Source: Thermoproteota archaeon (GTDB taxonomy: Archaea; Korarchaeota; Korarchaeia; Korarchaeales; Korarchaeaceae). From it: 64,000 bases of DNA. Position 1 is the stretch's first letter; each line of letters opens with the position of its first letter. Positions 1 through 22,283 of the stretch are shown piece after piece. The notes beneath the pieces are model-generated. The model did no database searches. It saw only the letters and a list, made by a program, of their open reading frames with translations, and was not told the origin of the DNA. The stretch is taken from the NCBI GenBank assembly GCA_026986575.1, contig JALSOH010000009.1, positions 192,001 to 256,000 of the forward strand. Direction: 5' to 3'. The position numbers and the translations under genes are program-made.

Positions 1-964
1 TCCAGCAGATAAATGGAATTACCTCCCCTCACATTCAATATCATTTCCAGTTAGATCCCGACCTAAATTTATATTATGAGATGCTATGTCAGGGTGTAAT
101 TTGAATCTTTTTTATCATTTTTAAAAAGACTGCTCGCAATAAAAGCGATGTTGAAAGCAAGCGCGCCTAAAACAGAGCTTCTCCTGACGCTTGCCGCAGT
201 TTCACCCATGTTTCTGAGCTTGTTGATCAAGCTAAAGCCAAACGGTGTGGAGCTACACCCTGAATGGATTTTGCTGTTCCCGATAACGTTGTACCTGCCC
301 AACATGAACCTAGAGGGATTACACAGGATATTCGATATCAGATGGTGCTGGAGGTCAAGGTCATCTTGAGCGAGAAGACCGACCTTTTACCATCCTCATG
401 GCCATCGCGCGCTAATCTACTCCTTGCTGTTGCTTGGTGGCACATAGAACCTGCTAGCGCTCCATAGCAACATGTGAGGAGGTGAGTGGGTAAATTAACG
501 GAGGTGAAGCGCGATTAGATACAATACAGCGAGCTATCGAGGGCATGGAGATCCATACGGGATGATGCTGATCGTTTATCCGTGAGAGGAGCATGGGGGG
601 TAAAGCAAGAGGCTTCCTCTTCCCCCAAACCTTCTACCCCTAGTATCCTCTCCATAGTTGAAGGTAGTTGAAGGTGTGAATCGGTGGAAACTAGTGAAAT
701 GTCTTACCGTTTGTAGGAGGGAACTGGAGGGTGGGTCGTGAGGGAAATCCTCTCGTAGGATCATGCCGGTGGAGCTAGAGGTCATGCTTTCCTCATTCCA
801 GCAGAATAATCCCCCCAGAACCCTTGAAAGCATCGCGCGACCATTATATACCCAAGGAACTCGTGTCCGGAAAGTGTTCGTTTCCGGACATAGTGATAGG
901 CTGGATATCGTGCCTTCCCACCGACTCCGCCTACGCGCGCGCTGCGTGAGGTGACTCCCCTAGG

Positions 965-1125
965 CAGAAAAGGAAAGGAAGTCGAAGTTTTGATGATATT
1001 CGGAATGAGTGGTGGAACGGAAGCTGGTGAACTCACAAGAGGTCGAAGAGGTGAGCAAGTGGATGTGCTCCGACACAACGCGTGCGGTTGATGGATCGCT
1101 GCAGACAACTAGAGAGGAGCTTACC
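965..1125 (+). pseudogene. Decayed copy of a vapB/vapC junction (paralogous to 6036-6290)
   Basis: DNA such as ttgatgatattcggaa...gaggtcgaagaggtgagcaagtggatgtgctccgacacaa closely matches ttgatgatagcattcggaa...gaggtcgaagaggtgggcaaatggatgcgctccttgacacaa at about 6055-6150, with indels and no intact ORF. Confidence 0.65.
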
Positions 1126-1264
1126 TCCAAGTTTACTGGGCTTGATGCTTGATGAGCGTCACTAGTTTATGCAAAGTAAAGTGAGGTAGAAGGAGAAGTG
1201 GATTATGAGGGGTTGGGGGACTAGTGTCACCTCAAGTCACGCATCGCTTATATAATAGTAATAC

Positions 1265-1288
1265 TTACTGTGTACGTAATGACAGTAA
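1265..1288. promoter_or_regulatory. Inverted repeat TTACTGT-n10-ACAGTAA over the antitoxin start; putative autoregulatory operator
   Basis: Seen in sequence, downstream of a TTATAT box at about 1248. Confidence 0.5.
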
Positions 1289-1515
1289 TTACCGTTAGGA
1301 TTGATGATGAGACCAAGAGGATGATGGAGCATATCAGAATAAACTGGAGTGAGTTCATAAGGAGCGCTATAAGGAGTAAGATAATGGAAGAGAGGAGGAG
1401 GAATCTAGCTAAGGCCGTGCTAATAACGGAGAGAGTGAGGAAGAGGAGCAGGGGAGAGGCAAAGGCTGAAGAGATAGTGAGGAGGTTCAGGGATGAGCGA
1501 GGAGGTAGTACTTGA
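1279..1515 (+). CDS. VapB-type (RHH) antitoxin
   Basis: MTVITVRIDDETKRMM...NWSEFIRSAI; overlaps the downstream PIN gene. Confidence 0.8.
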   Translation: MTVITVRIDDETKRMMEHIRINWSEFIRSAIRSKIMEERRRNLAKAVLITERVRKRSRGEAKAEEIVRRFRDERGGST

Positions 1516-1945
1516 CGCAAGCGTCGTGGTGAAGTGGTTCGTGGAGGAAGAAGGGTCTAAGGAAGCCTTAGAGATCAGGGATAGGTACGTGGAAGGAGAA
1601 ATACGGATAATCGCTCCTGAGCTCATCACGTACGAGGTGCTGAACGCCCTCTACTACAAGAGGCTCTTCTCGGAAGATGAGCTAAAACTGATTTCCGAGG
1701 CTCTGGAGGCGTACTCCTTCTCCCTTCATCCTTTAAGGGGGGAGTACGCCAAGAAAGTTGTGGAGGTTTCGTACGAGAACGATATAACCCTGTACGATGC
1801 CTCGTACGTGGCCTTAGCGATCGTCAGGGATACTTTCGCCTATACAGCTGATGAGAAGCTCATACGAAAGTTGGGAAGGGAATATAGAAGGTACGTTAGG
1901 AGATTGGGGGGTGATGCTAGCAAACAGAGATGGAGAACTGTTTAA
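1493..1945 (+). CDS. vapC: PIN-domain toxin (VapC family)
   Basis: VVLDASVVVKWF, YEVLNAL and TLYDASYVALA...TAD PIN motifs. Confidence 0.9.
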   Translation: MSEEVVLDASVVVKWFVEEEGSKEALEIRDRYVEGEIRIIAPELITYEVLNALYYKRLFSEDELKLISEALEAYSFSLHPLRGEYAKKVVEVSYENDITLYDASYVALAIVRDTFAYTADEKLIRKLGREYRRYVRRLGGDASKQRWRTV

Positions 1946-2266
1946 TGGAGGCGTGCGGTACCTGTCAACTTCAGCCATAGTAGGGGATCTCTAAGGTATG
2001 AGTTGAGAGATATTTCTGGCCATCAGAGAGTGAAGCCTGCTTTTTACGACCTATGTTCCCTTAAGCCTTCCGTGCTTGAGCTTAAAAGCAAACCGACGAG
2101 GCTTTGCATACCACTGTAAGAGGAGATAGAGGTCGTGATAAGTGAGTTCCGAGTTTTGTAGGGTGAGTAGATATACATGGTTGGGAGGAGATTGAGGAAC
2201 GTCATTTAAGTCTAGGAGGGCGACTCTATCCCTCGCTGACGTACTTCACGCGCGATCTGAGGGAGC

Positions 2267-2878
2267 CTACCTAATTCGACTTAGCCAGAGGTCTACCTCC
2301 TCCCCTACCTTCTTACGCCCCTTAACGCGCCTCTCCTCCATCTCGCGAAGGTATTCCCTTAATCTACTCACATCAACCATTTCGAGCAGCCGGGGTATGA
2401 TCTCGTCCCTCGCTGGGTACCCGAGATAAATCAGATCGATCAAGGTCTTCTCGGGATCAGAAACCCTTATCCATTCGCCTATCTCGTCCAGATACTTGTA
2501 CTCATACCCGAAGTACATCTTACCCGAGATCCTCCTGAGCACCACCTTGAAACCAGCTACTTGCCTGATGCCCCACCTCACAGTCTTGGACACGTTTGGA
2601 GAGAGCACGGTCACGGCCGTCACCTGGTTCCATGCCCCGTGGAGGAACGCCGCCGAGCCTAATCCAATGTAGGCCCTTGGAATAGCCTTTACAATCATGT
2701 AGGGGGACTTCTTAAAGGTGTAAACTCCCCTCAACAGCTCGACTATCTGCCCTTTCCTTCTCAAATTGTGGATGAGTAGCTTAGCGTAGTCCCTCCCCAC
2801 GACTGCCTCGACAGATCTGAACGTGAAGATTGATGACCTTCTAAGTCTTTCGATGAATTCTGAGTACTTAGTGGGCAA
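2267..2878 (-). CDS. abiEi: AbiEi-like type IV antitoxin / transcriptional regulator
   Basis: N-terminal wHTH (LRRKGQIVELLRGVY), YIGLGSAAFLHG and VSDPEKTLIDL motifs; overlaps the AbiEii gene. Confidence 0.8.
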   Translation of the reverse strand: MPTKYSEFIERLRRSSIFTFRSVEAVVGRDYAKLLIHNLRRKGQIVELLRGVYTFKKSPYMIVKAIPRAYIGLGSAAFLHGAWNQVTAVTVLSPNVSKTVRWGIRQVAGFKVVLRRISGKMYFGYEYKYLDEIGEWIRVSDPEKTLIDLIYLGYPARDEIIPRLLEMVDVSRLREYLREMEERRVKGRKKVGEEVDLWLSRIR

Positions 2879-3503
2879 ATCTCTCCACCTTCCTGACGAC
2901 TGTCTCGAAACTTGGAGGCCTTCCCATCAGGACGATCTCCCTCAATACGGGATAATCGCGTGGAGGTTCCCTTAATAGGGGAAGGATGTGCCTGAGCAGG
3001 TCCTTCACGCTAGCATCCTCGCATAGATCCAAGAGGTAGTATATGTCATATAGATCTCTGGCTTTCCTCCTATTCGCATAGGCATGCACCTTCTCCTCCA
3101 GAAGCGAGCAGGGCGTGAGGGTCTTGACAACGACGGTGCTACCGTCAATCAACCAAAAGTCCCCTTCGATTACTTCTCTCTCCTCGAACATGGGGGAGGC
3201 CTCAAGTTCAACCTCAGCTTCATTGCTGATCCTCAGGTAAAGGACCCTAGAGGGTGTGAGCTTCATCCGAGTGATGTTCAAAGTTGGAGAGAGTATGCTG
3301 GGGATCCTCTCAACGTCTTGGCAGTATATATCCACATCGTACGAGAACCTCTTTCCGCCGTAGATCCTCCATATGGCCGTACCCCCATGAATCACGAAGT
3401 CAACGCCTCTCAACAGTTCCAGTAACAGGACATCCTGCACCTCTGCTATTCTAAGCATGTTGCCCCTCAACACCTTCATTAGAGGGATTTTCCTATACAT
3501 CAC
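2868..3503 (-). CDS. abiEii: AbiEii-family nucleotidyltransferase toxin (type IV TA)
   Basis: HGGTAIWRIYGGKRFSYDVD and EK...R.KARDLYD motifs. Confidence 0.88.
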   Translation of the reverse strand: MMYRKIPLMKVLRGNMLRIAEVQDVLLLELLRGVDFVIHGGTAIWRIYGGKRFSYDVDIYCQDVERIPSILSPTLNITRMKLTPSRVLYLRISNEAEVELEASPMFEEREVIEGDFWLIDGSTVVVKTLTPCSLLEEKVHAYANRRKARDLYDIYYLLDLCEDASVKDLLRHILPLLREPPRDYPVLREIVLMGRPPSFETVVRKVERFAH

Positions 3504-3518
3504 AAATTCATTGACCTA

Positions 3519-3538
3519 GGTTATATTAAATTATAACC
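3519..3538. promoter_or_regulatory. Inverted repeat GGTTATA-n6-TATAACC overlapping the abiEii TATA region
   Basis: Seen in sequence, 16-35 nt upstream of the abiEii start. Confidence 0.5.
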
Positions 3539-4436
3539 CAAATCAACGATAGATGATACGCGCGAATACCGATGTAACCGGATCGCCATCCCCGCTACTG
3601 ATGGGGTTCCTAGAGCTACAAATGTTTCACGAATTGAAGTTGAAAAAAGAGAAGAAAATAGGAATATGCTGCATTATTTCAAAATATCCACGTTTCTCGT
3701 ACCTTTTCTTTTTTCTCTTAACAAACACATGCTCCCTATGCCCTGCTAACACTTGTCTTCGATAACCGGGTCTCCTCTCGTAGCTCGCTTTAGTTAGTTA
3801 TCCCGACAGTATCTAGGATCTTCTGGTATATCTTTTTTCTCACTATTCTCCAGCACTCTGGATATATCTTCCCCTTTCCCTCCCCCTCTCTCATAAGGAA
3901 AGTCTTCATAAGGGCCCCTCCTGTCCTAATAGGCTCATATAGAGGGAGAAAGCCCTTGAGCCTCCTATTATTATACCAATAATGTAGCGAATCCATCAGA
4001 GTGTGAAATCGGGAATCCGTTCTACAGCGCGTCACTCAGGCGGTTGCATTGAACTCGCTTACCTCGCGGCGATGTCGTCATCTCTCTGAAGCCTATACTA
4101 TGCTTAAGCGATAGCAGGCATGGTATGAGGAATTCGCCAGCATATACCTGTACTCCTTTACGTGGCCAATGTAACGCCTTTTAGGGTGGCCTATACTCCT
4201 TGCTCTCCTCTAGCTCTAACTTCACAGGTGTCGCCCTTCTATAGCGGAATTGCACGATCTTGGGTATCTACAGCATTATATCATTCATAACGATCCTCCG
4301 AATCACGAGTAGCGCTGGCTTAGTGTGTTCCCCAGTAATTATAGTAGATACTACCCGGCTCGGATGCAGTGCTCGGTACCACCACTAACCACGCGCGTTA
4401 TCGCGTGCTTAATAACTCTCAACCGTCTTACACCGG

Positions 4437-4670
4437 ATGGAATTCCTAAGGAGGGGGCGGAGCAATTAAAGAAGGAAGCCAGAGAGCCTTCGAGAAGGGC
4501 AATTACAACTTCACTCTCCTGTTTGTAGAGCAGGCCATGCAGTTATACCTTAAATACACTCCGGCAAATCGGTGGGTGACTTCCCCAAGGTACAGGGACT
4601 CGTCCGTTTGTTAGAAGCCCTCTCCTCGGCCTTAGGTGAAAGAGTGATAGCATTCCTGCGCTCGCCTTGA
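4437..4670 (+). pseudogene. Frameshifted HEPN-domain gene
   Basis: Fragments in different frames read MEFLRR / AFEKGNYNFTLLFVEQAMQLYLKY / VGDFPKVQGLVRLLEAL, typical of archaeal HEPN proteins. Confidence 0.7.
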
Positions 4671-4775
4671 AAGATTCGAGAGGGAGATAGAGCCGCTATC
4701 CTCTACTAGTGAGAGGAGGATAGAGGTCCTTAAAGATCTCCATGAGAGGGGAATTGTTACCCAAAATTACCTTTA

Positions 4776-4789
4776 TATACCATGGTATA
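4776..4789. promoter_or_regulatory. Perfect palindrome TATACCATGGTATA at the TA promoter
   Basis: Overlaps the TTTATA box and lies just upstream of the antitoxin GTG at 4802. Confidence 0.6.
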
Positions 4790-4801
4790 CCTTATGCTAC
4801 T

Positions 4802-5053
4802 GTGAGCGTGACCATATCCGTCAAGGTCAGGAAGGATGTTGTCGATCTGGCCGATAAGATGGTGAGGTATGGCATAGCTAGGAGCAGATCTCACGCCATA
4901 AACATCATGATAGAGAGGGGAATATCCCGAGCCAAGGAGGAAGTGGAACGCTGGGAGAGGATATATAGGGACGTTGAGAGATTGAGGAGGGAGGGATACA
5001 GGATAAGAAGGGGTGACCTCTGGAGGCTCCTCCAGGAGGGCAGATCGAGGTGA
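4802..5053 (+). CDS. RHH-type antitoxin (VapB-like)
   Basis: MSVTISVKVRKDVV...SRSHAINIMIERG; GTGA overlap with the PIN gene; start placed after the TATA box. Confidence 0.75.
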   Translation: MSVTISVKVRKDVVDLADKMVRYGIARSRSHAINIMIERGISRAKEEVERWERIYRDVERLRREGYRIRRGDLWRLLQEGRSR

Positions 5054-5457
5054 TGGGGGTGTACGTAGACACCAACGTGATCGTAGCGTTCATGGATGAA
5101 GCAGATCCCAATCACGGGAGAGCAGTAAAGGTGTTGGAGGGTTCCAATAAGGTCTCCTCCTTCCTCACACTCGTTGAACTGGCTTCAGTGTACTCTAGAG
5201 CTGGGTTTAGCGATCCTCAGGCCCTAGCAATATACTCCATGGAGGAGGCTGGGGTGGAGGTCTCAGAGGTAGGGTTTGAGGAGGTCCTCAAGGAGGCATT
5301 CAGGGTGGCTGACAAGATCAGGTTGAAGACCTTAGATTTACTCCATGTAGCCTCCTGCCTCCTGATGGGAGAGAAGGAGTTCCTGACTTTCGATGGTGAC
5401 ATCCTCAAGAAGAGGAAGGAGCTTGAAGGATTGGGGATAGAGGTCATCGGCGCATAG
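5050..5457 (+). CDS. vapC: PIN-domain toxin (VapC family)
   Basis: VYVDTNVIVA, TLVEL, LKTLDLLHVAS and FLTFD motifs. Confidence 0.9.
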   Translation: MMGVYVDTNVIVAFMDEADPNHGRAVKVLEGSNKVSSFLTLVELASVYSRAGFSDPQALAIYSMEEAGVEVSEVGFEEVLKEAFRVADKIRLKTLDLLHVASCLLMGEKEFLTFDGDILKKRKELEGLGIEVIGA

Positions 5458-5573
5458 GTTGGTAAGAGCTAATGTAGAATGGAATATCGCGCGCGATTCC
5501 TCGATGCTCACTCCACCACCATTTTATGGAGAGCTTCGTCCCTTGGACTCGTAGGTTACATATATACCTCTAA

Positions 5574-5800
5574 TCACTTTATTCTCAGATCCAAGAGCTC
5601 GGTAGCCTTCCCTGAGGATATTATATTGGTCAGTAGGAGCCCCAATACGATGAACATCCTTTCCCTGCAGGGATATGGGACGCGCTCCCAGAATATTCTG
5701 AATTCAAGTTCGCCCATTTGTTCCCTCAGCTGTCGGGATATGGGAGGCTATCCTTCTCCAAGACATCCCTGAGTTTCACCGTCAAGACCTCCACTTCCAC
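5574..5800 (-). pseudogene. Possible UPF0175-family antitoxin remnant
   Basis: Short frame reads ...LGLLLTNIISSGKATELLDL*, resembling the ISSGKAAELLG motif; upstream part disrupted. Confidence 0.35.
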
Positions 5801-5921
5801 CGAGTCGTGCAGCCAGCTTTATATCCCTGACTCCAAGAGGAATCAATCACCCGTACCATCCCGTCCTTACCCGCGCCGGACGACCCATCGGCGTGAACAT
5901 CAAACTTTTATCTCTCGGACT

Positions 5922-5937
5922 CATACATGCATGTATG
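5922..5937. promoter_or_regulatory. Perfect 16-bp palindrome CATACATGCATGTATG covering the antitoxin start codon
   Basis: Seen in sequence; TTTTAT box about 25 nt upstream of the ATG. Confidence 0.6.
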
Positions 5938-6156
5938 CCCAAGACGATAACGATATCCGATGATGTTTACGAGGAGTTGAAGAGGATCAAGGGGAGCAGG
6001 AGCTTCTCCGATGTAATAAGGTCTCTCTTGAGGAAGAAAAGCAACGCCGAAATCTTGATGATAGCATTCGGAACGAGGAGCGAAGTGGAAGCCGATGAGC
6101 TCAAGAGAGAGGTCGAAGAGGTGGGCAAATGGATGCGCTCCTTGACACAAGCGTGA
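5935..6156 (+). CDS. vapB: Antitoxin VapB (DUF217-like)
   Basis: MPKTITISDDVYEELKRIKGSRSFSDVIRSLL signature. Confidence 0.85.
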   Translation: MPKTITISDDVYEELKRIKGSRSFSDVIRSLLRKKSNAEILMIAFGTRSEVEADELKREVEEVGKWMRSLTQA

Positions 6157-6503
6157 TAATAGAGGTATTCAGGGGTAATGAAAGGGTGAGAGACCGCCTC
6201 ATTGAGCTTGGCCTGAACTACGGGATCTCTACCGTTACACTATTCGAACTGCACTGTGCCCGTCTGAAGCCTAGGGAGGAGCTCATGCTCGAGAAGCTCC
6301 CCAAGCTTCCGTTTGACGAGGGATCGGCGAAGCTAGCTGGGAACATGTACCGGGACCTGAAGAGCGAGGGACGCATTCCTCCCGCTAAGGACCTCTTCAT
6401 AGCCGCATCCGCGATAGCCCACGATAAGCTGCTCCTGACCCTCGATTCCGACTTCAGGGTATTTGAGAAGTACGGGCTCAGGTCGGAGTTCATTAGGGAA
6501 TGA
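6129..6503 (+). CDS. vapC: PIN-domain toxin (VapC family)
   Basis: LLDTSVII, VTLFEL, DLFIAASA and LTLDSDF motifs. Confidence 0.9.
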   Translation: MDALLDTSVIIEVFRGNERVRDRLIELGLNYGISTVTLFELHCARLKPREELMLEKLPKLPFDEGSAKLAGNMYRDLKSEGRIPPAKDLFIAASAIAHDKLLLTLDSDFRVFEKYGLRSEFIRE

Positions 6504-6537
6504 GGGTTACATACAAGGGTTTTGCGAGGGCGGAAAC

Positions 6538-6960
6538 CTATTTCTCTGGAGTGACTATGCAGGTCTGCCGTTCCGGACCGTCCATCAGGAGGCGGAGGAA
6601 TCTTAGCACCTCCCTTCCCACTATCATCTTCCCTTTTCCCATCAGCGGCGATTCCACGTAGGTCTCGATCCTCTCGTCACCCAGTAGGACGATAGACTTG
6701 GCTGTCCTCATGGGTATTACGCCGGACAGAGATCTGTAAATCCTCCAGTACTTTCTGGGAATCTCACCCACCTCGAAGAACCTGTAAACGTCCTCGGAAA
6801 CGAGTAGAGACCCCTCAAACCCGGTATCAACCATGAAGTCCAGTTCTTGAGGATATTCCTGCAGAAGGACGTTGAGCAATTTCAACCTCAGTCTGGGATA
6901 GGGGACTATCGATTCTCCGTATTTCATACACTCTCCAGCTCTAAAGATCCTCCCAGCCAC
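6538..6960 (-). CDS. Clan AA (retropepsin-like) aspartic protease
   Basis: FMVDTGF catalytic motif and the C-terminal IVGR motif. Confidence 0.8.
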   Translation of the reverse strand: MAGRIFRAGECMKYGESIVPYPRLRLKLLNVLLQEYPQELDFMVDTGFEGSLLVSEDVYRFFEVGEIPRKYWRIYRSLSGVIPMRTAKSIVLLGDERIETYVESPLMGKGKMIVGREVLRFLRLLMDGPERQTCIVTPEK

Positions 6961-7325
6961 TCTAGCTCCCTCCTTGTCCTATCATCCTCCCCGATCTTCA
7001 CGACCAAGGCGTTCCTGATCGGGGGCCTCAGGCCCTTGAGAGCGGATGCAACCTCCTCCAGAGAGTCGAAGAGCCCCACCAGCTTTCCCCTCGCGATCAC
7101 CGCGTACTTGCCCTCTTGCTTCCTCAGCTCTTCCTTGAGGGACTCGTAAGCCAGGTTATTGACATCCTGCTCCGTGATCAGGAGCTTATCCTTCAGGTCG
7201 AGCCACACCCTGACCGCCTCTTCGAACGCCTGGGAAAGGGTCAGCCCTCTCCTGATTGCTTCAGCCTTGAACTCCCTCACCAGCCTTTCGTCCGCGTTCT
7301 TTATCACTAGGGTCATCTGATTCAC
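6924..7325 (-). CDS. RHH + DUF5678-like protein (putative antitoxin partner of the protease)
   Basis: N-terminal RHH (TLVIKNADERLVREFKAEAIRRGLTL), then GKYAVIARGKLVG. Confidence 0.7.
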   Translation of the reverse strand: MNQMTLVIKNADERLVREFKAEAIRRGLTLSQAFEEAVRVWLDLKDKLLITEQDVNNLAYESLKEELRKQEGKYAVIARGKLVGLFDSLEEVASALKGLRPPIRNALVVKIGEDDRTRRELEWLGGSLELESV

Positions 7326-7620
7326 CTAAGTGAATTTGATTACATAGGTAATAAAGGTAATCGCGGTGGTTCGCACGCTCGGTGTAGTTTGAGTGAGCAG
7401 CTTCAGGCTAGGAGGCGACTCTCTTATCCTCACCCACTTTCTCAATGTTTTCTTTCACATTTTTCCTCTTATCCCACGCTCATGGTGTTCGAAAAGGATG
7501 CTAGCTTTGTCAGGATCGGTATAGCGTTCAGAATTAGCCCGAGTCAATGGAGGGTTGCTACACCCACCATGTAAGCTCTCGTGAGGGGAGTGATATCACT
7601 TGTAGCGGCCCGCAATCGCT

Positions 7621-8208
7621 TCATGTCTCCTGCAACCTCTGGGTCCCCTTTCTCTCTCCCCTCACAGGCCTCTTACGAGGCCTCCTCGTGATGACTTTAA
7701 GATTTCTGATTTCTGAGACATCTCTCTTCAAGATCCTCCTCATGATCCCTTTACCTTCCCTCGACAGTTCGTTCCAGCTGATCACCCCGATGAGCCGCTC
7801 TCTTAGGTACTCCCTCTCGATCTCACTGATGGCTTTCCTAACTAGAATAGTGTAACTCCAAGAGAGGACCCTGATTCCCCTCCCTTCCAGCCAGAGGCGG
7901 ATGAGATCTGCCACGAGTTTCGCCTTATCTACCTGCTTAATCACCCTCCTAGGCTTCAGGGTTGTCTTGAACTCGAAAGCGTGGAGCCATGTCATCCCAG
8001 CCTCTTGAAAGAGGACTAGATCTATCTCACCCAGGATCTTCTCATTCTCACCGGATGTGCTGATGGCCGAGATGCTATGCAGGGATCTGTAGCTGGGGAA
8101 GACCATGATGACGGAGTTCCTCATGGGCATCTCATGGAGTACCTCGACCATCCCCTCGACGAGCTTGAGCTCACCATATTGGGTTGAAGCTCTGGTGAGG
8201 ATCTTCAT
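7621..8208 (-). CDS. PD-(D/E)xK superfamily nuclease-like protein
   Basis: GEIDLVL...AFEFK...KQ motif; basic C-terminal tail; start MKILT chosen over the longer ORF (to 8355). Confidence 0.65.
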   Translation of the reverse strand: MKILTRASTQYGELKLVEGMVEVLHEMPMRNSVIMVFPSYRSLHSISAISTSGENEKILGEIDLVLFQEAGMTWLHAFEFKTTLKPRRVIKQVDKAKLVADLIRLWLEGRGIRVLSWSYTILVRKAISEIEREYLRERLIGVISWNELSREGKGIMRRILKRDVSEIRNLKVITRRPRKRPVRGERKGTQRLQET

Positions 8209-8452
8209 CCAACTCGGCCTCAATTGGATGGAATAAAAAGCAAATTGGCCGAAATTATCATGTAGTCGCCTCTCGGTGAAATTACCGGGCAGTCGTTGGA
8301 CTCGCACCCGACATGGACACAGTCCGAGCCCCTGATGCTCGCGCGAATCACGCATTCAGATGAATCCGATCGGTTAGAAGGGGATCCATCCCAGCTTCTC
8401 GGCCATCTCCCGCAAGACAGGATCTACCAGCGAGAGAAACCCGCTGGTTCCC

Positions 8453-9313
8453 TCACCCCCCCCTCTCCCTGCCGCCCAGATCGAGTCTCAAGATCTGAAC
8501 ACTTCTCGTGATGAAATGCTTGAGTATGGTGATCCTGCCCTCAAGCTCCTTCAGCAATGCGGCCAGGGATTCTATCATTTCGTTCCTCCTGAGGGTCTTC
8601 GCCTCACCTTCACTTGGTTTTCCTCTGTACCCCAGATTTCGGAGCAACCTGTACTCCATCTCACTTGGATTCGAAGGCGCCAGGTTTATTATGCCCACGA
8701 ACCTAGAGTAGAATTCCTTGATGCCTCCCATCTCATCCGCGTAGTACTGCTCCAACTTGTCGATCATCCTCAGAGTCCTCTTACAGTCTATGATGGCAGG
8801 TCTAAGCACCACCGCGTAGGAGGTGGAGAGGAAAATACTTAGAACGGTGTAACGCAGATCGAAGAAGGGAGCGCTGTCCAGTATGACGTACTTGAACTTT
8901 GAGTATACCCCGGCTTTCTCAAAGAGCCGCTTAAATATAGATCCAGGTTTCCCAGACTTCCATGCGTCGTCGATGACATCAACGAAATTCTCTCCGGGAG
9001 AGAGGATCCTGAGCGGAATGTCTCCTATCCTAGCAGGGCTCAGGTAGTCGTCCACCAGGATATTCTTCCTATGTTTGATAGAATCCTCGTACATTGCCTC
9101 TAGGGTCATCCTGCCCTCAACTACACGATCGTATGACACATTGTCCATGACAGCTAGGCTAAGACCGGCCGTGGGATCCATGTCCACCAAGAGAATGTCA
9201 TAGGGGTTGACCTTCAGGATCTTGACCAACCAGGCAGCCAGGGCTAGGGAGAGGGTGGTCTTGCCAACGCCGCCTGAGGCGGATATGAAGGATATTATCC
9301 TAGATGATGACAC
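8453..9313 (-). CDS. ParA/MinD-family ATPase
   Basis: Walker A SASGGVGKTT, LLVDMDP (A') and VILDSAP (Walker B). Confidence 0.88.
   Translation of the reverse strand: MSSSRIISFISASGGVGKTTLSLALAAWLVKILKVNPYDILLVDMDPTAGLSLAVMDNVSYDRVVEGRMTLEAMYEDSIKHRKNILVDDYLSPARIGDIPLRILSPGENFVDVIDDAWKSGKPGSIFKRLFEKAGVYSKFKYVILDSAPFFDLRYTVLSIFLSTSYAVVLRPAIIDCKRTLRMIDKLEQYYADEMGGIKEFYSRFVGIINLAPSNPSEMEYRLLRNLGYRGKPSEGEAKTLRRNEMIESLAALLKELEGRITILKHFITRSVQILRLDLGGRERGG
8456..8463. repeat. G8 homopolymer (minus strand) immediately before the ParA stop codon
   Basis: Eight consecutive C on the plus strand. Confidence 0.9.
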
Positions 9314-9695
9314 AGTTCTTATCCATGAGAGAGTAAATGATAAGTCTTATACCCAGCCTTCTCCCCATCGCGGTTACCCGTGACAGGTACCCTTCGTCCA
9401 AAGCATCAACTATATGAAGTAAACCAGCTGAGCCGATACCGGCTACCTCCTCAAGAGCCACGGCCTGACAGAATCCATAAAAGAATCTTTCGGGCTTTAT
9501 TTTCACCTCCAGAGCCTCAGTTCCCCTGAGAACATCAGCTTCAACGCCGTTGATCACTGTGTTGGCATCGCCTCCTACCGAACTTGCAAGAAGCCTGTTG
9601 AAGTCTTTCTCATCTCTCGCCATATCGAGGAGCTGGTGAAACCTGCTAGAGCGAATGAGCTGTTCGACGTCGCTCACGAGACTGGATGTCTTCAT
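9300..9695 (-). CDS. Small PD-(D/E)xK nuclease-fold protein
   Basis: DEKDF...VEADVL...ALEVK...GFCQA motif; overlaps the ParA start; alternative start at 9710. Confidence 0.65.
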   Translation of the reverse strand: MKTSSLVSDVEQLIRSSRFHQLLDMARDEKDFNRLLASSVGGDANTVINGVEADVLRGTEALEVKIKPERFFYGFCQAVALEEVAGIGSAGLLHIVDALDEGYLSRVTAMGRRLGIRLIIYSLMDKNCVII

Positions 9696-10002
9696 ATAGA
9701 AGGATCTCATGCCCCAGATATAAGTTAATTCTGGTGACGAACTCTTGACGATCTAGCATCGTTCACGACCCCCTGCGCGGTGACACATCGCCACGGCCCA
9801 CAGCTGCATCAGGCTTAAGTCCCAGTGAAGTGGCAGAGCAGCTCGAAATTTGTGGTCGCGCTTCACTATACAATGAGAGGATTTTTCCTCGAGGGTAACA
9901 GAGACGGGCTCTCAGACAATCCCCTCGAGTTGGGGAGGTCCGCAGATCGTCATCTCCTGAGGAAGGTAATAATCGATCCAAGATGAGTGGAGATGGCTGG
10001 AG

Positions 10003-11925
10003 TTAGGTCCAAGGTCTCCTCCACTTCTCCTGCCTTGGCATTAGCGATCTTACCAGCACGTATATTGTGGCCATCAGAGACGCTGCCTGCAAGAGCATGA
10101 GGAGAGGATCCCTGAACACCAGCTCCACCACATGTTTTCCCGGCTCCATGTGGATTAGTATGAGGCCCAGCTCATCCCTCTCGGGAGCCCCCGCATCACG
10201 GCCATCCACTTTGACGGTCCAGTGGGGATACCAAGCCTCCGAGACCCTCACCTCTGCGCTGGAATTGGAGCTGTACCTGAACCTTATGTAGCCATCCCTC
10301 CACTCCTCCATCTTCAGCTCGCACCCCTCGCAGCTCAGCATCGACCCCGAATCCCATCTCAGCACTTCGATGCTACCGTATCTACCCACCTCCACGAATC
10401 CCAAATCCTCAAGTAGATTCAGACCCCTGCTTACGTTCAGGTCCACCAACACGTACTTCACACCAAAAGCCGCTAGCTTCTCACCAACTTCCTTCCTACC
10501 GTTCTCGATCTCCCACTCCATCTGAACATGTTGAGGGTACAGAGGATCCCCTTGTCTGTACCATCCGTTCAAGGAGGGTTTACCAGCCAGTACTGGGGAG
10601 TAAGAGACCATGGAGCCGAGCCTGAATATGATCCCCTGCTGGTGGAACCTAAACGCGCCAGGATCTCGCCCCACCAATCGGAGCGCCCTTCCTAAGTCCG
10701 GATCGAAGTCTGTCCCTGCTAAATAGGTCATTCTTGGTGCTGATTCAACGTAGAGGGGAAATACCAAGAGGATGAGGAGGAGTGGTAGCCACCTCCTCCT
10801 CGAGAGGCCGGCAAGCATCTCAAGCAGGCCTCCCAGCGCCACTGCTGCCGACAGTTGGGTGAGGTCCAGCCACCTGTAGGGCGGGATCATACTCAGGAGT
10901 GGCAGCCTGTTCAGCCAAGGGACGGGGCCCTTAGCCCCCAAACTGAGCAGAAGGGAGACCAGAGCCAGGGACGAGGAGATTAGAGTCGATAATACCCTTA
11001 TATCCGCCTCTTGGGACCTCTTCATCACAAGTATGGAGGCTGGGAGGGAGAGGAAGGCTAGCAGCATCCTAGTGCTTCCCTGATAGAAGCTCCAAGGCCC
11101 CGAGTCGATAAAAGGAGCTACTAAGGGTACGCTCTGCCTCGTGTAGAGGTAATCAATGGAATTCTCATTCAGGAAGTGCGCCAGGTTTCTCTCTAGGATG
11201 AAAGGGAATATCCAGAAGGAAGCGATTATTAGAGCCCACACCACGGTGGAGAGAGTGTTCTTGAGTCTGAGGGCCAAGTCCTCAAGCCTCGGAGTCTCGT
11301 CGACTAGGGCAGCTAACCAGAGGAATCCGGCGAGCGGCGCCACGACTACAGCTAGGGAGTGATGCGTCAGCGGCAGTGCTGCGATCGGAAGGGCGCAGAT
11401 GGGTCTGCTGTCCCTCTCCTTAGCCAATCTTACAAAACATGCTATAGAGAGGGGTGCTAAGGAGGCGGCCACGACCCTCGGGAAGTTCCCCTCAGGTGAT
11501 ATCATTCTGAAGAGCCAGGGGTTGATGGAATAAGAGATGCCCATGATGATGGAGGGTATCTCGGAGAGCTCCAGCTCCCTACCCAGAAGGTAGGCGGATA
11601 GGGAGGCTATCACCAAGCTCAAGGTGATGATCGCCTTGTAGGCTAGAGCTGGGTCTCCCAGAGGCATGGAGGCCGCCCAGGCCATTAGATAGGAGAGGGG
11701 TGGATAGAACCTGAGGAAGGGGTAGCCGGAGTACCAGTCCTTTATCCAAGGGGAGAAGCCCTGAGAGTGCAGCTTCCATATCTTGAAGAGGTGGCCGTAG
11801 GCATCCCCTCCCCAGCCGGGGGGCAGGGGACCGGCGAGGTACATCTCCAACAATCCCGTGGCCGAGAGGAGTAGAGGAAGCGCCACTAGGCTAGCGATCA
11901 CCCCCAGCCTCCTGTCCCAGTGCAT
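10003..11925 (-). CDS. Polytopic membrane protein, PTPS-related/YfhO-like GT-C glycosyltransferase
   Basis: D..GH, WYSGYPFLRFYPPL motif, many TM helices, C-terminal SEAWYPHW.VKVDG YfhO-type domain. Confidence 0.75.
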   Translation of the reverse strand: MHWDRRLGVIASLVALPLLLSATGLLEMYLAGPLPPGWGGDAYGHLFKIWKLHSQGFSPWIKDWYSGYPFLRFYPPLSYLMAWAASMPLGDPALAYKAIITLSLVIASLSAYLLGRELELSEIPSIIMGISYSINPWLFRMISPEGNFPRVVAASLAPLSIACFVRLAKERDSRPICALPIAALPLTHHSLAVVVAPLAGFLWLAALVDETPRLEDLALRLKNTLSTVVWALIIASFWIFPFILERNLAHFLNENSIDYLYTRQSVPLVAPFIDSGPWSFYQGSTRMLLAFLSLPASILVMKRSQEADIRVLSTLISSSLALVSLLLSLGAKGPVPWLNRLPLLSMIPPYRWLDLTQLSAAVALGGLLEMLAGLSRRRWLPLLLILLVFPLYVESAPRMTYLAGTDFDPDLGRALRLVGRDPGAFRFHQQGIIFRLGSMVSYSPVLAGKPSLNGWYRQGDPLYPQHVQMEWEIENGRKEVGEKLAAFGVKYVLVDLNVSRGLNLLEDLGFVEVGRYGSIEVLRWDSGSMLSCEGCELKMEEWRDGYIRFRYSSNSSAEVRVSEAWYPHWTVKVDGRDAGAPERDELGLILIHMEPGKHVVELVFRDPLLMLLQAASLMATIYVLVRSLMPRQEKWRRPWT

Positions 11926-12020
11926 CCCTCTGTCGAGTCCCTGAACTATTTAGTAGTTTTCCCGCTCATCGACTTTGCGCCGTCCGGTGATGAGGGAATG
12001 CCAATCTTTTAGTTGAAGTC

Positions 12021-12287
12021 TTGGATGTAGGGCAGGCGTCAGTGATGCTGAGGGTGGTCCCGGTAGGTCGGGAGCTCTTGGATCTTCCCCTCCTTCTTGG
12101 GAATCCCGTCATAGAGAGGGCCTTGGGCATCCTGAAGAAGGCCCATCCCTCGCTGATATCCAAACTCTTTCTCAGAGAAGCCCCGCTAATCGTGTTCGCC
12201 AAGGAAACTGGGAGGAGGATAGCCGACATGATGGAGGAAAGGGTGATCGAGAGAGGTCATCGGAAAGCGCGAGGATGGACCTGTTGA
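12021..12287 (+). CDS. Hypothetical protein (possibly N-half of a frameshifted gene)
   Basis: ORF with host-like codon usage; overlaps the next ORF. Confidence 0.45.
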   Translation: MDVGQASVMLRVVPVGRELLDLPLLLGNPVIERALGILKKAHPSLISKLFLREAPLIVFAKETGRRIADMMEERVIERGHRKARGWTC

Positions 12288-12520
12288 GGGGGTTCTCCAC
12301 GCATTCGGACCTCCTGGTGTACCTGATGGATGCCTCGCTCAACACGACCCTCGACGCGGAACTGGAGGAAATTCACTGGTGGCTTCTCTCCAAATATGGC
12401 ATGCTATCGAGCCCTGTGGAGGAGCTGAATGCGAGGCTGATGGGTCGCCTCAACTACCTGAGGAGGCGGGTGCTCTCTTATCAGCTCACCTATCTGATGA
12501 GGGAGGGAGCCTTAAGGTAA
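12275..12520 (+). CDS. Hypothetical protein (possibly C-half of a frameshifted gene)
   Basis: ORF with host-like codon usage. Confidence 0.45.
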   Translation: MDLLRGFSTHSDLLVYLMDASLNTTLDAELEEIHWWLLSKYGMLSSPVEELNARLMGRLNYLRRRVLSYQLTYLMREGALR

Positions 12521-12582
12521 TCGCTACGTTAGGTGAGCGGTGATGGTCCAAGGGATCCCGTATCCTCCTACCGGAACCAGCC

Positions 12583-13032
12583 TCACCTCCTGAGTACCCA
12601 CTTCTCCCTTACGTGATTCCCCTCCCTATCGAATCCCAGATCTATCAGCTCTGCGGTTATGCCGTGATCCTCGAGGGCCGCGAACATGAGGTTGGTCATG
12701 TAGTGGGAGGGAGCCATCCCCGACTCCACCAGCTCTATGGAGGATTCGAGTACCGACACGCCGTACATGTCTAGAACGAGCTCGTCCTCACTTACCTTAG
12801 TCACCTCGATCCTCTCCATGTACCCCATCCTCTCTAAGAACTTGGCTACTTCCACTAGAGTATCGAGGGGGTCCTCCCTCCACCCTATCAGTCCTCCCTC
12901 CTTGGCCCTCCGGTAGCACACCCTCCCCACTTCCCTGAAGACATCCTCTGTAGCCTCCTTGCCCAACCTCTCGTTCAGGACACGACATATCCCGTAGTTG
13001 ACGAGATCCAAAAAGATGGGATCGACTGGCAT
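12583..13032 (-). CDS. V4R/H-NOX-like small ligand-binding fold protein
   Basis: Helical N-terminus with EVG, then a G-containing beta hairpin and the beta-strand pattern of V4R-type domains. Confidence 0.5.
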   Translation of the reverse strand: MPVDPIFLDLVNYGICRVLNERLGKEATEDVFREVGRVCYRRAKEGGLIGWREDPLDTLVEVAKFLERMGYMERIEVTKVSEDELVLDMYGVSVLESSIELVESGMAPSHYMTNLMFAALEDHGITAELIDLGFDREGNHVREKWVLRR

Positions 13033-13113
13033 GCTTCTACTTGAGAGGACTGCATATTAACTTTCCGACCTAGAGAGGTTATAAGGCCCTCTCTCCTTTA
13101 GTTGGGGGATGGG

Positions 13114-13632
13114 ATGAAGTGGGTGACCCGCTCTTTCCCGGGAGTTGACAGGACCGCATCGGCATGGTTGATAAAGAGATTCGTTGATCCTGAAGCTGAG
13201 TTCATCTTAATCGACTGGCCTGAGGAGGAATTGAAGCCCGAATACGGGATACCCTTCGATATCAAGGGAGTCGAGCACGGGCACAGGGATGGCAAGTGCA
13301 CCTTCGAGGTCATAGTTGAGAGGTACTCGATCGAGGATCCGTACGTGAAGCGAATGACTGAGATCGTGCATGCCGCCGACATAAAGGGAGAGGAGAAGCG
13401 AGCTCCGGAGGAGATGGGGATCAAGGCCGTTCTGGACGGTCTCAGGTTCGTCACGAGGAGCGATAGCGAGACGTTGAGGAACGGAATGATGCTATGGGAG
13501 GCCCTATATGTTCACTTAAGATTGGAGGATCTGAAGAAGGAGCTGCAGAAGGAACTGGAATCCCTATCTAGGACGGAGAGGCTCCGCCTTCTCAAGAGGA
13601 AACTTCAGGAGAATAGAGGTATCTTAGAATGA
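13114..13632 (+). CDS. Chromate resistance ChrB C-terminal domain protein
   Basis: MKWVTR...DRTASAWLIKRFVDPEAEF, PFDI.G, H....CTFE and IVHAAD signature. Confidence 0.85.
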   Translation: MKWVTRSFPGVDRTASAWLIKRFVDPEAEFILIDWPEEELKPEYGIPFDIKGVEHGHRDGKCTFEVIVERYSIEDPYVKRMTEIVHAADIKGEEKRAPEEMGIKAVLDGLRFVTRSDSETLRNGMMLWEALYVHLRLEDLKKELQKELESLSRTERLRLLKRKLQENRGILE

Positions 13633-13860
13633 TGATAGGATTCTAGGCATATCGCTCGGAGCTACGCCATCATACGCCAGCATTCCCAATAGGAGAGGTC
13701 ATTTTGGTCAAACATAGGAGTGGTATTGGATGTGAATTAGGCGTGGTGGGGTAAGCCTTATCGGCATATCTCTCAAGCACTATCTTGGGAGAAGAGAGCA
13801 CGGTTTTCATGGATATTCGGTTCGGTAAATATATATGAGAACAAGGGACTTTTGGCAGGA

Positions 13861-14397
13861 TTAATGAGGAGAGATTCGCATGTGTGGAACAAAGAGATCT
13901 CCGATAGTCCCCTCCTCGGGATGCTCATGCGCCACCCCTGACTCAGTCCTGTGTGGAGATCGGGCGTTAAGTGACTCTGCGCAATCGGAGTTTCTCTTCT
14001 TCCCGTATTGTATGTAGGCCTTTTTGATTGAGCATAGGGGTTCCAGCAACCTTCCTATCAGGAATTCTCTTATTATCGCGAGGAAGGTGACCCCAACTAG
14101 GAGAAGGGCGAAATGAACGATCCCCAGTACTATAAGGGGGGCGAAAGTCGAAACGAGCCCCAGAGTGTAGGGCACCGTGATGAATGCGGAAAGTATTGCC
14201 AGTAATATGACCAATAGAATTGAAGAGACTACCGAAAGATGGGACAGCTCTAATGCTTCCTCCAAATCTCTCCTAATGATAAGGAGCGGCGAGATGAGGG
14301 ATACAAGCGAGACGTAGGTGAAGAAATCGATCCTCCCTGCATGATGTGCCCAGCGCGCGATCCAACACCCCGACACGAGTGCGATACATGCCTTCAA
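13861..14397 (-). CDS. Hypothetical membrane protein
   Basis: Three to four hydrophobic segments; start uncertain. Confidence 0.5.
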   Translation of the reverse strand: MKACIALVSGCWIARWAHHAGRIDFFTYVSLVSLISPLLIIRRDLEEALELSHLSVVSSILLVILLAILSAFITVPYTLGLVSTFAPLIVLGIVHFALLLVGVTFLAIIREFLIGRLLEPLCSIKKAYIQYGKKRNSDCAESLNARSPHRTESGVAHEHPEEGTIGDLFVPHMRISPH

Positions 14398-17999: not shown

Positions 18000-19196
18000 C
18001 TAAGAGGGCACTGAGTATACCTTTTCCAATTCCTCCGGTTGAATGATACCATCCATGTCCGTATCATTCCATCCGACGACCACGAGGGTCTTGTCCACCA
18101 ACTTCCAACGGTTTTCCAACACCCATATCAGCGCCGCTCTAGTTCCTACCTTGGTCGTTCCAGCCAGCCTCGCGTTGAAACCACCCTCGCAAGTGAGATG
18201 TACTATGCCGAAATCCCTGTGCTCGTCCGAGATGAACATCGAGTTGTTCATGGTGATCCTGCCTTCACCGAGCTGGATGTTATACTTGCTCCAAGGTTGG
18301 GGTCTGACTGCCAGCCAACCGACGAACATCACATTTCCCTCTTCCCCTAGTCCGGCCTTCCCGGAGAGGTTCCCTAGGATATCTGAATTATATTCAAGGT
18401 CCTCGCTGTATCCCCTGTATTTGGCGGATCTGGGCCATCCATCGGGCAATGGACACGTTTTAATGGGCTGTGGCATGGGAATGCTGACCGTAACATGTCT
18501 CTCTTTCTTGTTGAAGTGAGCTACAGCTTTGTGATCGCTGTTCATCTTGATAGAAAGCTTCTTAGTGTACTTGGCGACTCCATCGAGTGTCCAGTGACTG
18601 AATTCCCATCCAGCGTGGGCATTGGGATTGAGGGTCACAACAAAGCCGTGAGAGAGGGTGTGGACTCCCACACCGTAGGGGCTCACTTCACCCGATCCCA
18701 CCGGGTCCACCGCCACCGTCAAGCGGTGTCCGGTCCTCTTCAGGTAGAGGGTAACCTTCGCTGACGACCCCTCGTTGATGTACACGTAAGCCCTGTTACC
18801 AGTTATAACCACGCTGGTGAGTTCCCTTGATGGTTGGGTACCGGAAATCATCGCCTCGACCGTACCTATACCGTCTGTGATGTCTCCACCGTAGGATAGG
18901 GATACCACCCAGTGATCGAAGGAGTACCCAGAACAGGGATGTGGTGTGAGTCGGTACCAGAGAGAAGGCTCCACTAGGGTTGTATCGCCGTGTCCGTAGG
19001 TCCCTGCTGGACTATAGGGTCCTGAAAGCGAGGAGGAGACCTCCATCTCTATGGGATCGCACGCCGTGATCGCGGTCCCGGCGCTCACCTCCTTCACTCC
19101 AAAGCCGATGTCAGAAACATTGATGACTATGGCTAGCCCGGTTAACGGGGTGACCAAGAGGATCGCTACTAAGGTTGCCACCAAAATGCGCTCCAT
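18000..19196 (-). CDS. Surface protein with InlB B-repeat-like domains and shared C-terminal domain
   Basis: Signal peptide; GYSFDHW and GWEFSHW repeats; C-terminal RLAGTTKVGTRAALIW...W.DTDMDG. Confidence 0.8.
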   Translation of the reverse strand: MERILVATLVAILLVTPLTGLAIVINVSDIGFGVKEVSAGTAITACDPIEMEVSSSLSGPYSPAGTYGHGDTTLVEPSLWYRLTPHPCSGYSFDHWVVSLSYGGDITDGIGTVEAMISGTQPSRELTSVVITGNRAYVYINEGSSAKVTLYLKRTGHRLTVAVDPVGSGEVSPYGVGVHTLSHGFVVTLNPNAHAGWEFSHWTLDGVAKYTKKLSIKMNSDHKAVAHFNKKERHVTVSIPMPQPIKTCPLPDGWPRSAKYRGYSEDLEYNSDILGNLSGKAGLGEEGNVMFVGWLAVRPQPWSKYNIQLGEGRITMNNSMFISDEHRDFGIVHLTCEGGFNARLAGTTKVGTRAALIWVLENRWKLVDKTLVVVGWNDTDMDGIIQPEELEKVYSVPS

Positions 19197-19453
19197 CGCT
19201 ATCTAAGATTGAATGAGCATTAAAGTAATAAAGTTTTCTGTTGGAAATTTTATATGGAAAATATCATCATCTCTTTTGGGAAATCAATTTAATTTAGTAA
19301 ATGTCTATTTTGATTTACAAATAAGCGTTCGCAAAGACCTATCAAGACACATTCTGGGTCTTCTAATGGGTTGCGAAGTTGAAGATGAGCCGCAAGCAGT
19401 TCCCACAGCGGGAGCATCAGATGATTGCTTGAAGGACATCCGATCTGATTCGT

Positions 19454-19474
19454 AAAAAAGAGGAGAAGAGGGGA
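19454..19474 (-). terminator. Pyrimidine/U-rich terminator after the 856-aa surface protein gene
   Basis: cccctcttctcctctttttt on the minus strand right after the stop. Confidence 0.5.
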
Positions 19475-22045: not shown

Positions 22046-22283
22046 AGAAAGTAACCTAAAAATTCGTAGAAAGTGTTCTTATAAGTCTTTTGGTTAAATT
22101 AACTCCGAAATCTATAGTCCGAATTCAAGTTCGTACGAGCTCTCGTGAGGCCGAGGGGAATAAAGCTTCTCATGGATCGACCAGTTTCAGGAAGATCGTG
22201 GGACCAGATGCGACGAATTCTTGGAGATAGTAAGAAGGAGCGGAGGAATAGAAACTGATAATTCTCACGCATGGATGCATTTA

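Follow-up and report, generated by a model that had tools for sequence, protein, structure and literature searches.

A predicted PD-(D/E)xK nuclease and an atypical ParA/MinD-like ATPase form a conserved two-gene unit in archaea

The window analysed here is a stretch of 64,000 nucleotides (nt) from a korarchaeal genome (assembly GCA_026986575.1, contig JALSOH010000009.1). It corresponds to positions 192001-256000 of contig C9 in genome G000, which comprises 1.9 Mb and is 99.7% complete. Judged by the organisms to which relatives of its ATPase are assigned, the genome belongs to Thermofilaceae. On the minus strand of the window, between positions 7621 and 9710, the list of open reading frames (ORFs) contains three co-oriented genes, which encode proteins of 136, 286 and 244 amino acids (aa), respectively. 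The first two, i.e. a small nuclease-fold gene and an ATPase gene, share a 14-nt overlap. They are flanked on one side by a gene for a PTPS-related membrane protein, a neighbour that is kept in the closest relative (G020) and in the next relative (G010), and on the other side by a toxin-antitoxin (TA) island. According to Pfam annotation, this island contains AbiEi/AbiEii as well as three PIN genes, and a VapB-type antitoxin accompanies one of the latter. An initial annotation had placed three co-oriented genes at the edge of such an island, with the small nuclease overlapping the ATPase, and in both respects it was accurate. It had also proposed that all three genes act together as one system, a ParA-gated defence against foreign DNA. 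The present analysis corrects this three-gene "system" to a two-gene unit (from now on, the dyad) plus a bystander, and suggests that the local copy of the dyad may be impaired. The features of the locus, all of them on the minus strand, are the following:

9300..9710, minus strand: gene for the predicted small PD-(D/E)xK nuclease-fold protein (ORF; conserved motif and fold model)
8453..9313, minus strand: gene for the ParA/MinD-like ATPase, 286 aa as encoded, GTG start (Pfam AAA_31 and CbiA)
8456..8463, minus strand: homopolymer of eight G (G8), at which the ATPase frame shifts (DNA alignment with G020 and G010)
8374..8439, minus strand: out-of-frame C-terminal remnant of the ATPase, FLSLVDPVLREMAEKLGW, plus stop codon (tblastn with the G020 orthologue)
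8229..8240, minus strand: T/A-rich box, CTTTTTATTC, a possible TATA box (sequence inspection)
7621..8208, minus strand: gene for the downstream protein, 195 aa if started at M50, with a predicted PD-(D/E)xK nuclease fold and a tail that is basic and disordered (ORF open to 8355)

The ATPase is the only one of the three proteins that matches curated families: in Pfam, AAA_31 at 45.4 bits (cut-off 27) and CbiA at 40.6 bits (cut-off 25.4). The NCBIfam partition models remain far under their cut-offs (29.9 bits vs. 180, and 30.4 bits vs. 348). Its Walker A motif, SASGGVGKTT, is devoid of the signature lysine of the deviant Walker A (KGGxxGK[ST]). In 20 out of 20 aligned family members, the position of this lysine is occupied by Ser or Pro (SA[SP]GGVGKT) and, hence, the "atypical" character attributed to this ParA by the initial annotation extends to the whole family. 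In the same 20-sequence alignment, residues S11, A12, G14, G15, G17, K18, T19, D44, D46, D146 and N210 are invariant; D44 and D46 are taken by us to be the DxD of the Switch/Walker A' motif, and D146 the Asp of Walker B. The family profile is about equidistant from ArsA, Soj, PF-32, the P1/P7 ParA proteins and McdA (E 1e-13 to 1e-9); the family is, judged by its sequence profile, a separate branch of the ParA/MinD class. Against the G020 orthologue, the ratio of non-synonymous to synonymous substitution rates (dN/dS) is 0.05; the ATPase of G010 is 75% identical to that of the window (tblastn).

The small protein encoded upstream of the ATPase probably starts at M6 (position 9695). A word-based search with the single sequence recovered one homologue, and a profile search recovered 10. 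Residues E34, E57, D59, E68, K70, G79 and Q82 are invariant among eight homologues. In an AlphaFold2 (AF2) model with a predicted local distance difference test (pLDDT) score of 90.3, E34, D59, E68 and K70 are located on helix 34-44 and on strands 56-62 and 65-71. When this model was compared with 48,161 chains by means of VIA, 16 of the top 17 matches were PD-(D/E)xK-type nucleases or nuclease-fold proteins, with Z values (5.5-7.5) that fall in the "common" range of VIA. The best match was NucS (Z 7.5; 86 residues, 2.3 A), followed by BstYI (7.0), OkrAI (7.0) and BglII (6.9), with PaqCI, AF1548 and BamHI within 6.6-7.0. Foldseek returned weak nuclease matches only, none of them at E <= 0.001. 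Since the Z values are in the common range and Foldseek gave no match at that threshold, the fold call also needs the motif: it is on model and motif together that the protein is predicted to have a PD-(D/E)xK nuclease fold. No family of Pfam, PADLOC or NCBIfam matches it, and the profiles of both nucleases gave chance-level matches only against the chain sequences of the PDB. In JGI, two of its relatives carry the name "predicted RecB family endonuclease". Its dN/dS against G020 is 0.11. With the NucS/EndoMS domain, with BamHI, BglII and BstYI, and with PDDEXK_10, the protein has in common the fold and the E...D...ExK...Q pattern. Unlike NucS or the restriction enzymes, it is a single domain of 130 aa without a DNA-recognition or PCNA-binding extension; and, unlike other small PD-(D/E)xK enzymes, it is encoded next to an ATPase gene (for the exception, a pseudogene, see below). 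Its weak sequence relatives are three coiled-coil proteins, one of which carries a sub-threshold C-terminal PDDEXK_10 match (19.2 bits vs. 21.2). As a separate observation, the genus has a family of 250-330-aa proteins in which a long coiled coil is followed by a C-terminal domain with a weak relationship to the dyad nuclease (G000:C10:21110-21238 (L054), L049, L052 and similar loci). Besides, the protein Atlas returned unnamed clusters at 0.90-0.91, one of which has 14% Mrr_cat; this is a lead only.

The upstream nuclease gene and the ATPase gene constitute a conserved two-gene unit. In a scan of archaea with one genome per species, in which the ATPase family was recovered through the pattern SA[SP]GGVGKT, 44 loci were found. 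They span Thermofilaceae, Infirmifilum, Caldivirga, Vulcanisaeta, Thermocladium, Pyrobaculum and Thermoproteus, as well as the Asgard lineages Heimdall-, Njord-, Baldr- and Promethearchaeota. Within the first 13 family loci, a small gene was located directly upstream in eight, a ninth being cut at the C-terminal end by a contig edge. Over the whole set, a match to the nuclease hidden Markov model (HMM) lies directly beside the ATPase at 26/44 loci. Six more loci, from Pyrobaculum and Thermoproteus, have a diverged form of the nuclease, which raises adjacency to 32/44; two of the remaining 12 begin at a contig edge. This diverged form (121-133 aa) is encoded by an upstream overlapping gene and has D41, E50, E52, G62 and Q63 as invariant residues (D...ExE...GQ). 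The Thermoproteaceae nuclease thus shows ExE instead of ExK, and ExE is also found in BamHI. When both forms were compared by hhalign (E 2.9e-4, probability 40%), their catalytic columns were aligned. As regards gene order, the nuclease gene is mostly upstream and overlapping, divergent in two Vulcanisaeta loci and downstream in four, with adjacency kept throughout. In Thermoproteaceae, the ATPase family is present in 23 of 29 genomes (E <= 1e-20), in up to three copies, and the nuclease adjoins the ATPase in 21/29 loci.

Furthermore, the type of nuclease follows the clade of the ATPase in a quick maximum-likelihood IQ-TREE tree of 70 rows, from which L065, L095 and L097 (truncated or fragmented) were omitted and rows <80 bits, <200 aa or without GGxGK[ST] were dropped. 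In this tree, the clade of the window's ATPase includes G020, G010 and Infirmifilum, together with Njord/Baldr and Caldivirga/Vulcanisaeta/Pyrobaculum copies. Losses are asymmetric. Solitary ATPase genes, with no nuclease beside them, are frequent; they evolve under purifying selection (dN/dS 0.04-0.12). An intact nuclease without an intact ATPase was not seen, with the exception of L095 (5953-6875), in a separate Thermofilaceae genome, where the ATPase is split over four frames beside the nuclease ORF. The sole nuclease copy with no ATPase (G025:C9:322117-322461; L028/L035) is a pseudogene with two TAA stops. A prediction of the ATPase-nuclease complex from family alignments gave no answer (score 0.00) and speaks neither for nor against binding. 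No account of this dyad was found in a search of the full-text literature on archaeal defence and repair for a pairing of ParA with a nuclease, although in supplements, which lie outside that search, the family may appear as an arCOG entry; likewise, the dyad is not described in PMC4158269, PMC12988326 or PMC3396285.

The third gene of the locus behaves differently. Its product probably starts at M50 (position 8208), which gives a protein of 195 aa, since most of its relatives and the G020 orthologue align from about this residue. It has eight relatives among 1.84 billion representative proteins, with G60, E61, D63, E79, F80, K81 and Q92 invariant. The model (pLDDT 87.7) shows a tail that is basic, as the initial annotation had noted, and disordered. 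Its matches are Can2 (Z 10.3), AF1548, VC1899 and Cdn1 (9.1) and NucS (8.1), and from motif and modelled fold the protein is predicted to be a PD-(D/E)xK nuclease-fold protein. With D...ExK...Q motifs conserved in both flanking proteins and confident models that match PD-(D/E)xK nucleases, the nuclease folds proposed at the outset for the two of them are well founded. PADLOC yielded one chance-level match on the downstream ORF (PDC-M41A, E 0.031, 25 residues).

This downstream family occurs in eight of 40 related genomes of the class and lies beside the ATPase in just two of them, namely G000 and G020, the closest relative. The other six loci have no common neighbour (genes for Fur, ferritin, AIM24, dehydroquinase, aldolase or PIN proteins surround them), and in G010 no downstream nuclease was found behind the ATPase. 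Between G000 and G020, synonymous divergence (dS) amounts to 0.82 for the downstream nuclease, compared with 0.39 for the ATPase and 0.25 for the upstream nuclease. Given this patchy adjacency, the lack of common neighbours, the absence from G010 and the faster divergence, the downstream nuclease is an unrelated bystander, independent of the conserved dyad. A spacer of about 170-245 nt separates it from the ATPase gene, and the T/A-rich box listed above, which precedes the M50 ATG by 21-32 nt, is a possible archaeal TATA box that would give this gene a promoter of its own. Of the proposal that three genes form one system, the part concerning the upstream nuclease and the ATPase is therefore retained, and the inclusion of the downstream nuclease is withdrawn: co-conservation, which the initial annotation itself had named as a criterion, does not hold for the three genes together.

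The window's own copy of the ATPase gene is frameshifted. Compared with the orthologues of G020 and G010, the run of eight G at 8456-8463 has four extra bases (DNA alignment), which bring into frame the TGA located directly after the run (8453-8455) and remove a conserved C-terminal helix. The lost end is found in a second frame (8386-8439), where 17 of 18 residues match the G020 orthologue (tblastn), and the TAA at 8374-8376 is the stop that the full-length gene would use. This C-terminal segment is conserved in the relatives of the ATPase; in the window, its last ~20 residues are out of frame. The sequence of the run is identical and gap-free in contigs from two of four sequencing runs, belonging to two studies (covering 8300-8600), and the assembly may derive from both of these; minor variants at the run would not be visible in contigs. 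In this genome, the module may be impaired through the truncated ATPase.

The frameshift and the asymmetric losses bear on a first alternative, namely that the dyad is a TA-like addiction module in which the nuclease is the toxin and the ParA-like ATPase neutralises or sequesters it. A small operon of two overlapping genes, bordering on a TA island, would suit such a module, and so would the multiple, specific paralogous pairs and the fact that the ATPase often stands alone, when an intact nuclease with no ATPase gene beside it was not seen (apart from the G025 pseudogene and L095). Nevertheless, a strict addiction module would not tolerate the situation in the window, where the ATPase is truncated and the nuclease gene intact. 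Orphan ATPases are, moreover, syntenic and conserved over species, and a 290-aa ATPase that occurs across phyla with its nucleotide-binding motifs intact is more than a neutraliser needs. To our knowledge, there is no antitoxin of the ParA class. All in all, this alternative is regarded as improbable.

Among characterised systems, the closest in layout are the partition pairs (ParAB, SegAB and the AspA-ParB-ParA set of pNOB8), which, like the dyad, have a ParA/MinD ATPase beside a small partner, with genes that often overlap. The likeness extends to the ATPase itself, with its AAA_31 and CbiA matches, the GKT of Walker A, the DxD and the Asp of Walker B. In contrast to partition pairs, (i) the partner of the dyad has a predicted PD-(D/E)xK fold with invariant catalytic residues, and not a ParB, SegB, ribbon-helix-helix or winged helix-turn-helix fold; (ii) this partner is usually encoded upstream; (iii) there are no centromere-like repeats; and (iv) throughout the family, Ser or Pro stands in the position of the signature lysine. 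As to SegAB in particular, the downstream gene is not co-conserved and the conserved partner is a nuclease-fold protein encoded mostly upstream, the SegB sequence itself not having been searched. As to systems of the pNOB8 or ParABS type, no ParB_N gene adjoins the dyad: the only two ParB_N matches of genome G000 are on contigs C4 and C1, and the dyad is on C9. No repeat array is present within positions 7300-10100 of the window. The initial annotation, which had seen neither a ParB gene nor a repeat array by the operon, was right in this regard. On the other hand, the dyad could still be read as a partition or segregation cassette, either of the chromosome or of a mobile element (present or former), with the nuclease-fold protein serving only as a DNA-binding adaptor. 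The combination of a ParA-type ATPase gene with a small, adjacent and often overlapping partner gene is the layout of par operons, and the paralogous, co-diverging pairs resemble incompatibility groups. Apart from the missing repeats, this reading is contradicted by the surroundings, since no integrase, plasmid, replication or other mobile-element genes were found around the annotated dyad loci. The invariance of the catalytic residues (E, D, ExK and Q) speaks for an enzyme that would be active; and it is the signature lysine, missing in this family, that drives the ATP switch of ParA. Of the readings considered here, this one is the least probable. As a separate observation, a ParB-like gene was seen close to the dyad in a single locus, L069 (G039:C10). 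There, a second, canonical MinD/ParA ATPase (KGGVGKT) and a ParB_N protein are encoded at 3638-4360 and 7927-8370, at a distance of ~1-2 kb, the ParB_N gene being about 1 kb away.

With the defence systems McrBC, PARIS (AriAB) and Septu (PtuAB), the dyad shares the combination of an NTPase and a nuclease in a compact operon. Actually, McrC, SduA, NucC, Can2 and Card1 are among the structural neighbours of the two nuclease models. The pairing of an NTPase with a nuclease is a recurrent architecture in defence, and reportedly there is a preprint devoted to nuclease-NTPase systems. But while McrBC, PARIS and Septu use AAA+ or ABC ATPases, the NTPase of the dyad belongs to the ParA/MinD class of SIMIBI proteins; also unlike those systems, many dyad loci are in housekeeping or DNA-repair surroundings. 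At E <= 1, neither the ATPase nor the upstream nuclease has a match among the models of PADLOC-DB v2, in agreement with the initial annotation, which could not match the locus to any named defence system.

A further term of comparison is Ted (Thermoproteales exchange of DNA), whose loci, according to parts of the published account, contain VirC1/MinD/ParA-like ATPases together with HerA and Rad50-type genes (Beltran et al., 2023; PMC9905601). Compared by description only, the ATPases of Ted and of the dyad both belong to the MinD/ParA family, both occur in Thermoproteales and both accompany recombination genes of the HerA/Rad50 type (PMC9905601, in part). As regards a location beside tedA, tedB or tedC, the annotated dyad loci showed no VirB4-, VirB6- or pilin-type Pfam match (several of their ORFs being without any Pfam match), and the parts of that account considered here mention no partner nuclease (PMC9905601). 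Weak AAA_10 matches exist in four Pyrobaculum genomes, 61-158 kb from the dyad.

The genes that surround the dyad in other genomes suggest DNA maintenance no less than virus defence. In Infirmifilum, its neighbours encode the thermosome, RpoK, arcadin-1, a class II aminoacyl-tRNA synthetase and RpoH. In Pyrobaculum, RadA is encoded directly upstream of the dyad (radA adjoins the ATPase in 5/29 Thermoproteaceae loci), and in Thermoproteus the dyad is situated between herA-mre11 and nurA, the latter being adjacent in four of the 29. HhH-GPD glycosylases are encoded within ~3 kb of the dyad in one Heimdallarchaeota and one Thermocladium locus. The most divergent clade of Thermoproteaceae has genes for an H+-PPase, a V-ATPase subunit and ribosomal proteins nearby, with XPF ~4 kb away in one locus. 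Independently of the above, it was observed that in L080 (Thermoproteus sp. UBA157; 462-8096), and also in L115, L117, L129 and L130, an ATPase on the opposite strand, with or without the nuclease, is inserted between herA-mre11 and nurA and splits the usual break-resection cluster; clusters of the L080 type have a large, unannotated ORF upstream of herA-mre11.

On physical interaction, ATP gating, substrate and biological role, we infer the following. Like ParA proteins, the ATP-bound ATPase would sit on DNA, where it would recruit or license its partner nuclease. This nuclease would thus fill the place that ParB-type adaptors have in partition systems, and it may also stimulate ATP turnover, which should be partner-dependent because the signature lysine is missing. 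The module would more likely process the DNA of the cell itself (recombination, repair, chromosome maintenance) than act as a dedicated anti-virus system. This host-DNA role is favoured because (i) in Thermoproteaceae, the family is close to universal and keeps its synteny, beside radA or herA/nurA; and (ii) the ATPase stays under selection after the nuclease has been lost. Taken jointly, the mechanism, the role in host DNA and the separate third gene are given a probability of roughly 0.4.

Several observations weigh against this interpretation. Adjacency to repair genes represents at most two independent events, since it reflects synteny within two genera, and in the quick tree those loci belong to a clade other than that of the window. 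Within the window's own clade, several loci are near TA or CRISPR-accessory genes: L143 has PIN and HepT/MNT, L066 has HEPN/MNT, L060 has PIN and ATPase_2, and L145 (G074:C1, Pyrobaculum, 8528-14277) has Cas6, a HerA-like ATPase and Cas_APE2256 at 1.3 kb. Up to three paralogous dyads occur per genome, with two in G010. Only eight of 36 Thermofilaceae genomes have strong nuclease matches, and one of these is the G025 pseudogene. Decay is evident in that pseudogene, in L095, with its ATPase over four frames, and in the frameshift of the window. Finally, the family occurs in Asgard lineages as well. Paralogy, patchiness, decay and Asgard occurrence would be more in keeping with a system of conflict or addiction than with a factor of core repair. 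With regard to L145, it may be added that an AAA_15/AAA_21 ATPase is encoded upstream.

These same traits are the basis for considering the dyad, without the third gene, as a new two-gene defence system, in which foreign DNA would be sensed or coated by the ATPase and cut by the nuclease under its licence. Its architecture is a recurrent one in defence, as stated above; its distribution is patchy, with pseudogenes; several paralogous pairs can be found per genome and related copies in Asgard lineages; some loci are near TA or CRISPR-accessory genes; and the ATPase and the upstream nuclease match no known system in PADLOC. Against it, the family is nearly universal in Thermoproteaceae, where it is syntenic beside radA or herA/nurA and housekeeping genes; the ATPase remains under purifying selection after loss of the nuclease; and the annotated loci have no integrase or other mobile-element genes around them. 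Regarding the TA island of the window, with 54 PIN matches across the 1.9 Mb of genome G000, PIN genes are so frequent that proximity to the island is weak evidence. A defence role is hence possible but not favoured, and this reading as a whole is considered rather unlikely. The ParA-gated defence against foreign DNA put forward in the initial annotation found no specific support: elsewhere the surroundings are of the housekeeping or repair type, the ATPase is kept without the nuclease, and TA proximity is of little informative value.

In terms of its sequence, the dyad appears to be an uncharacterised variant of the ParA-plus-partner theme, of unproven function. In their known roles, ParA/MinD ATPases act as switches for positioning and segregation, with DNA-binding adaptors as partners. 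A ParA family that is paired over a wide range with an apparently active nuclease, and that has lost the signature lysine central to the ParA ATP switch, would extend the uses of this class of ATPases. In Thermoproteaceae, the neighbouring radA, or herA on one side and nurA on the other, offer a testable link to homologous recombination in hyperthermophiles, many factors of which are still missing. If the dyad were defensive instead, it would be one more archaeal system, which the catalogues now in use fail to pick up. In its broadest form, the proposal would be that a ParA ATPase without signature lysine and a mini-nuclease make up an unrecognised DNA-transaction machine of archaea (Thermoproteales, Thermofilaceae, Asgard), in which a nucleoid-bound switch of the ParA type, and not an AAA+, ABC or SMC motor, licenses cleavage. 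Such a machine would work with RadA or HerA-NurA in break repair and recombination, or else represent a new class of innate immunity. This broad proposal is advanced tentatively, with its chances placed below even.

Concerning the remainder of the window, the TA block of ~5.6 kb at 1946-7620 is missing in the closest relative, G020, where the PIN gene that is the counterpart of window 1493-1945 is directly followed by the downstream nuclease; the block is, in other words, a variable island. Its genes include (i) AbiEi/AbiEii at 2267-3503; (ii) a PIN gene and an upstream partner ORF without Pfam match at 4742-5457; and (iii) a VapB-type antitoxin and a PIN gene at 5893-6503. At 6538-7325, on the minus strand, there is an overlapping gene pair without Pfam match, which may be another TA-like pair: judged by eye, the N-terminus of its 133-aa protein resembles a ribbon-helix-helix antitoxin, and its 140-aa protein carries a MVDTGFEGS motif that recalls retropepsin-like aspartic proteases. 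Farther along the window, at 18000-23105 on the minus strand, three genes (398, 856 and 273 aa) with Flg_new_2 / InlB B-repeat domains probably encode surface proteins.

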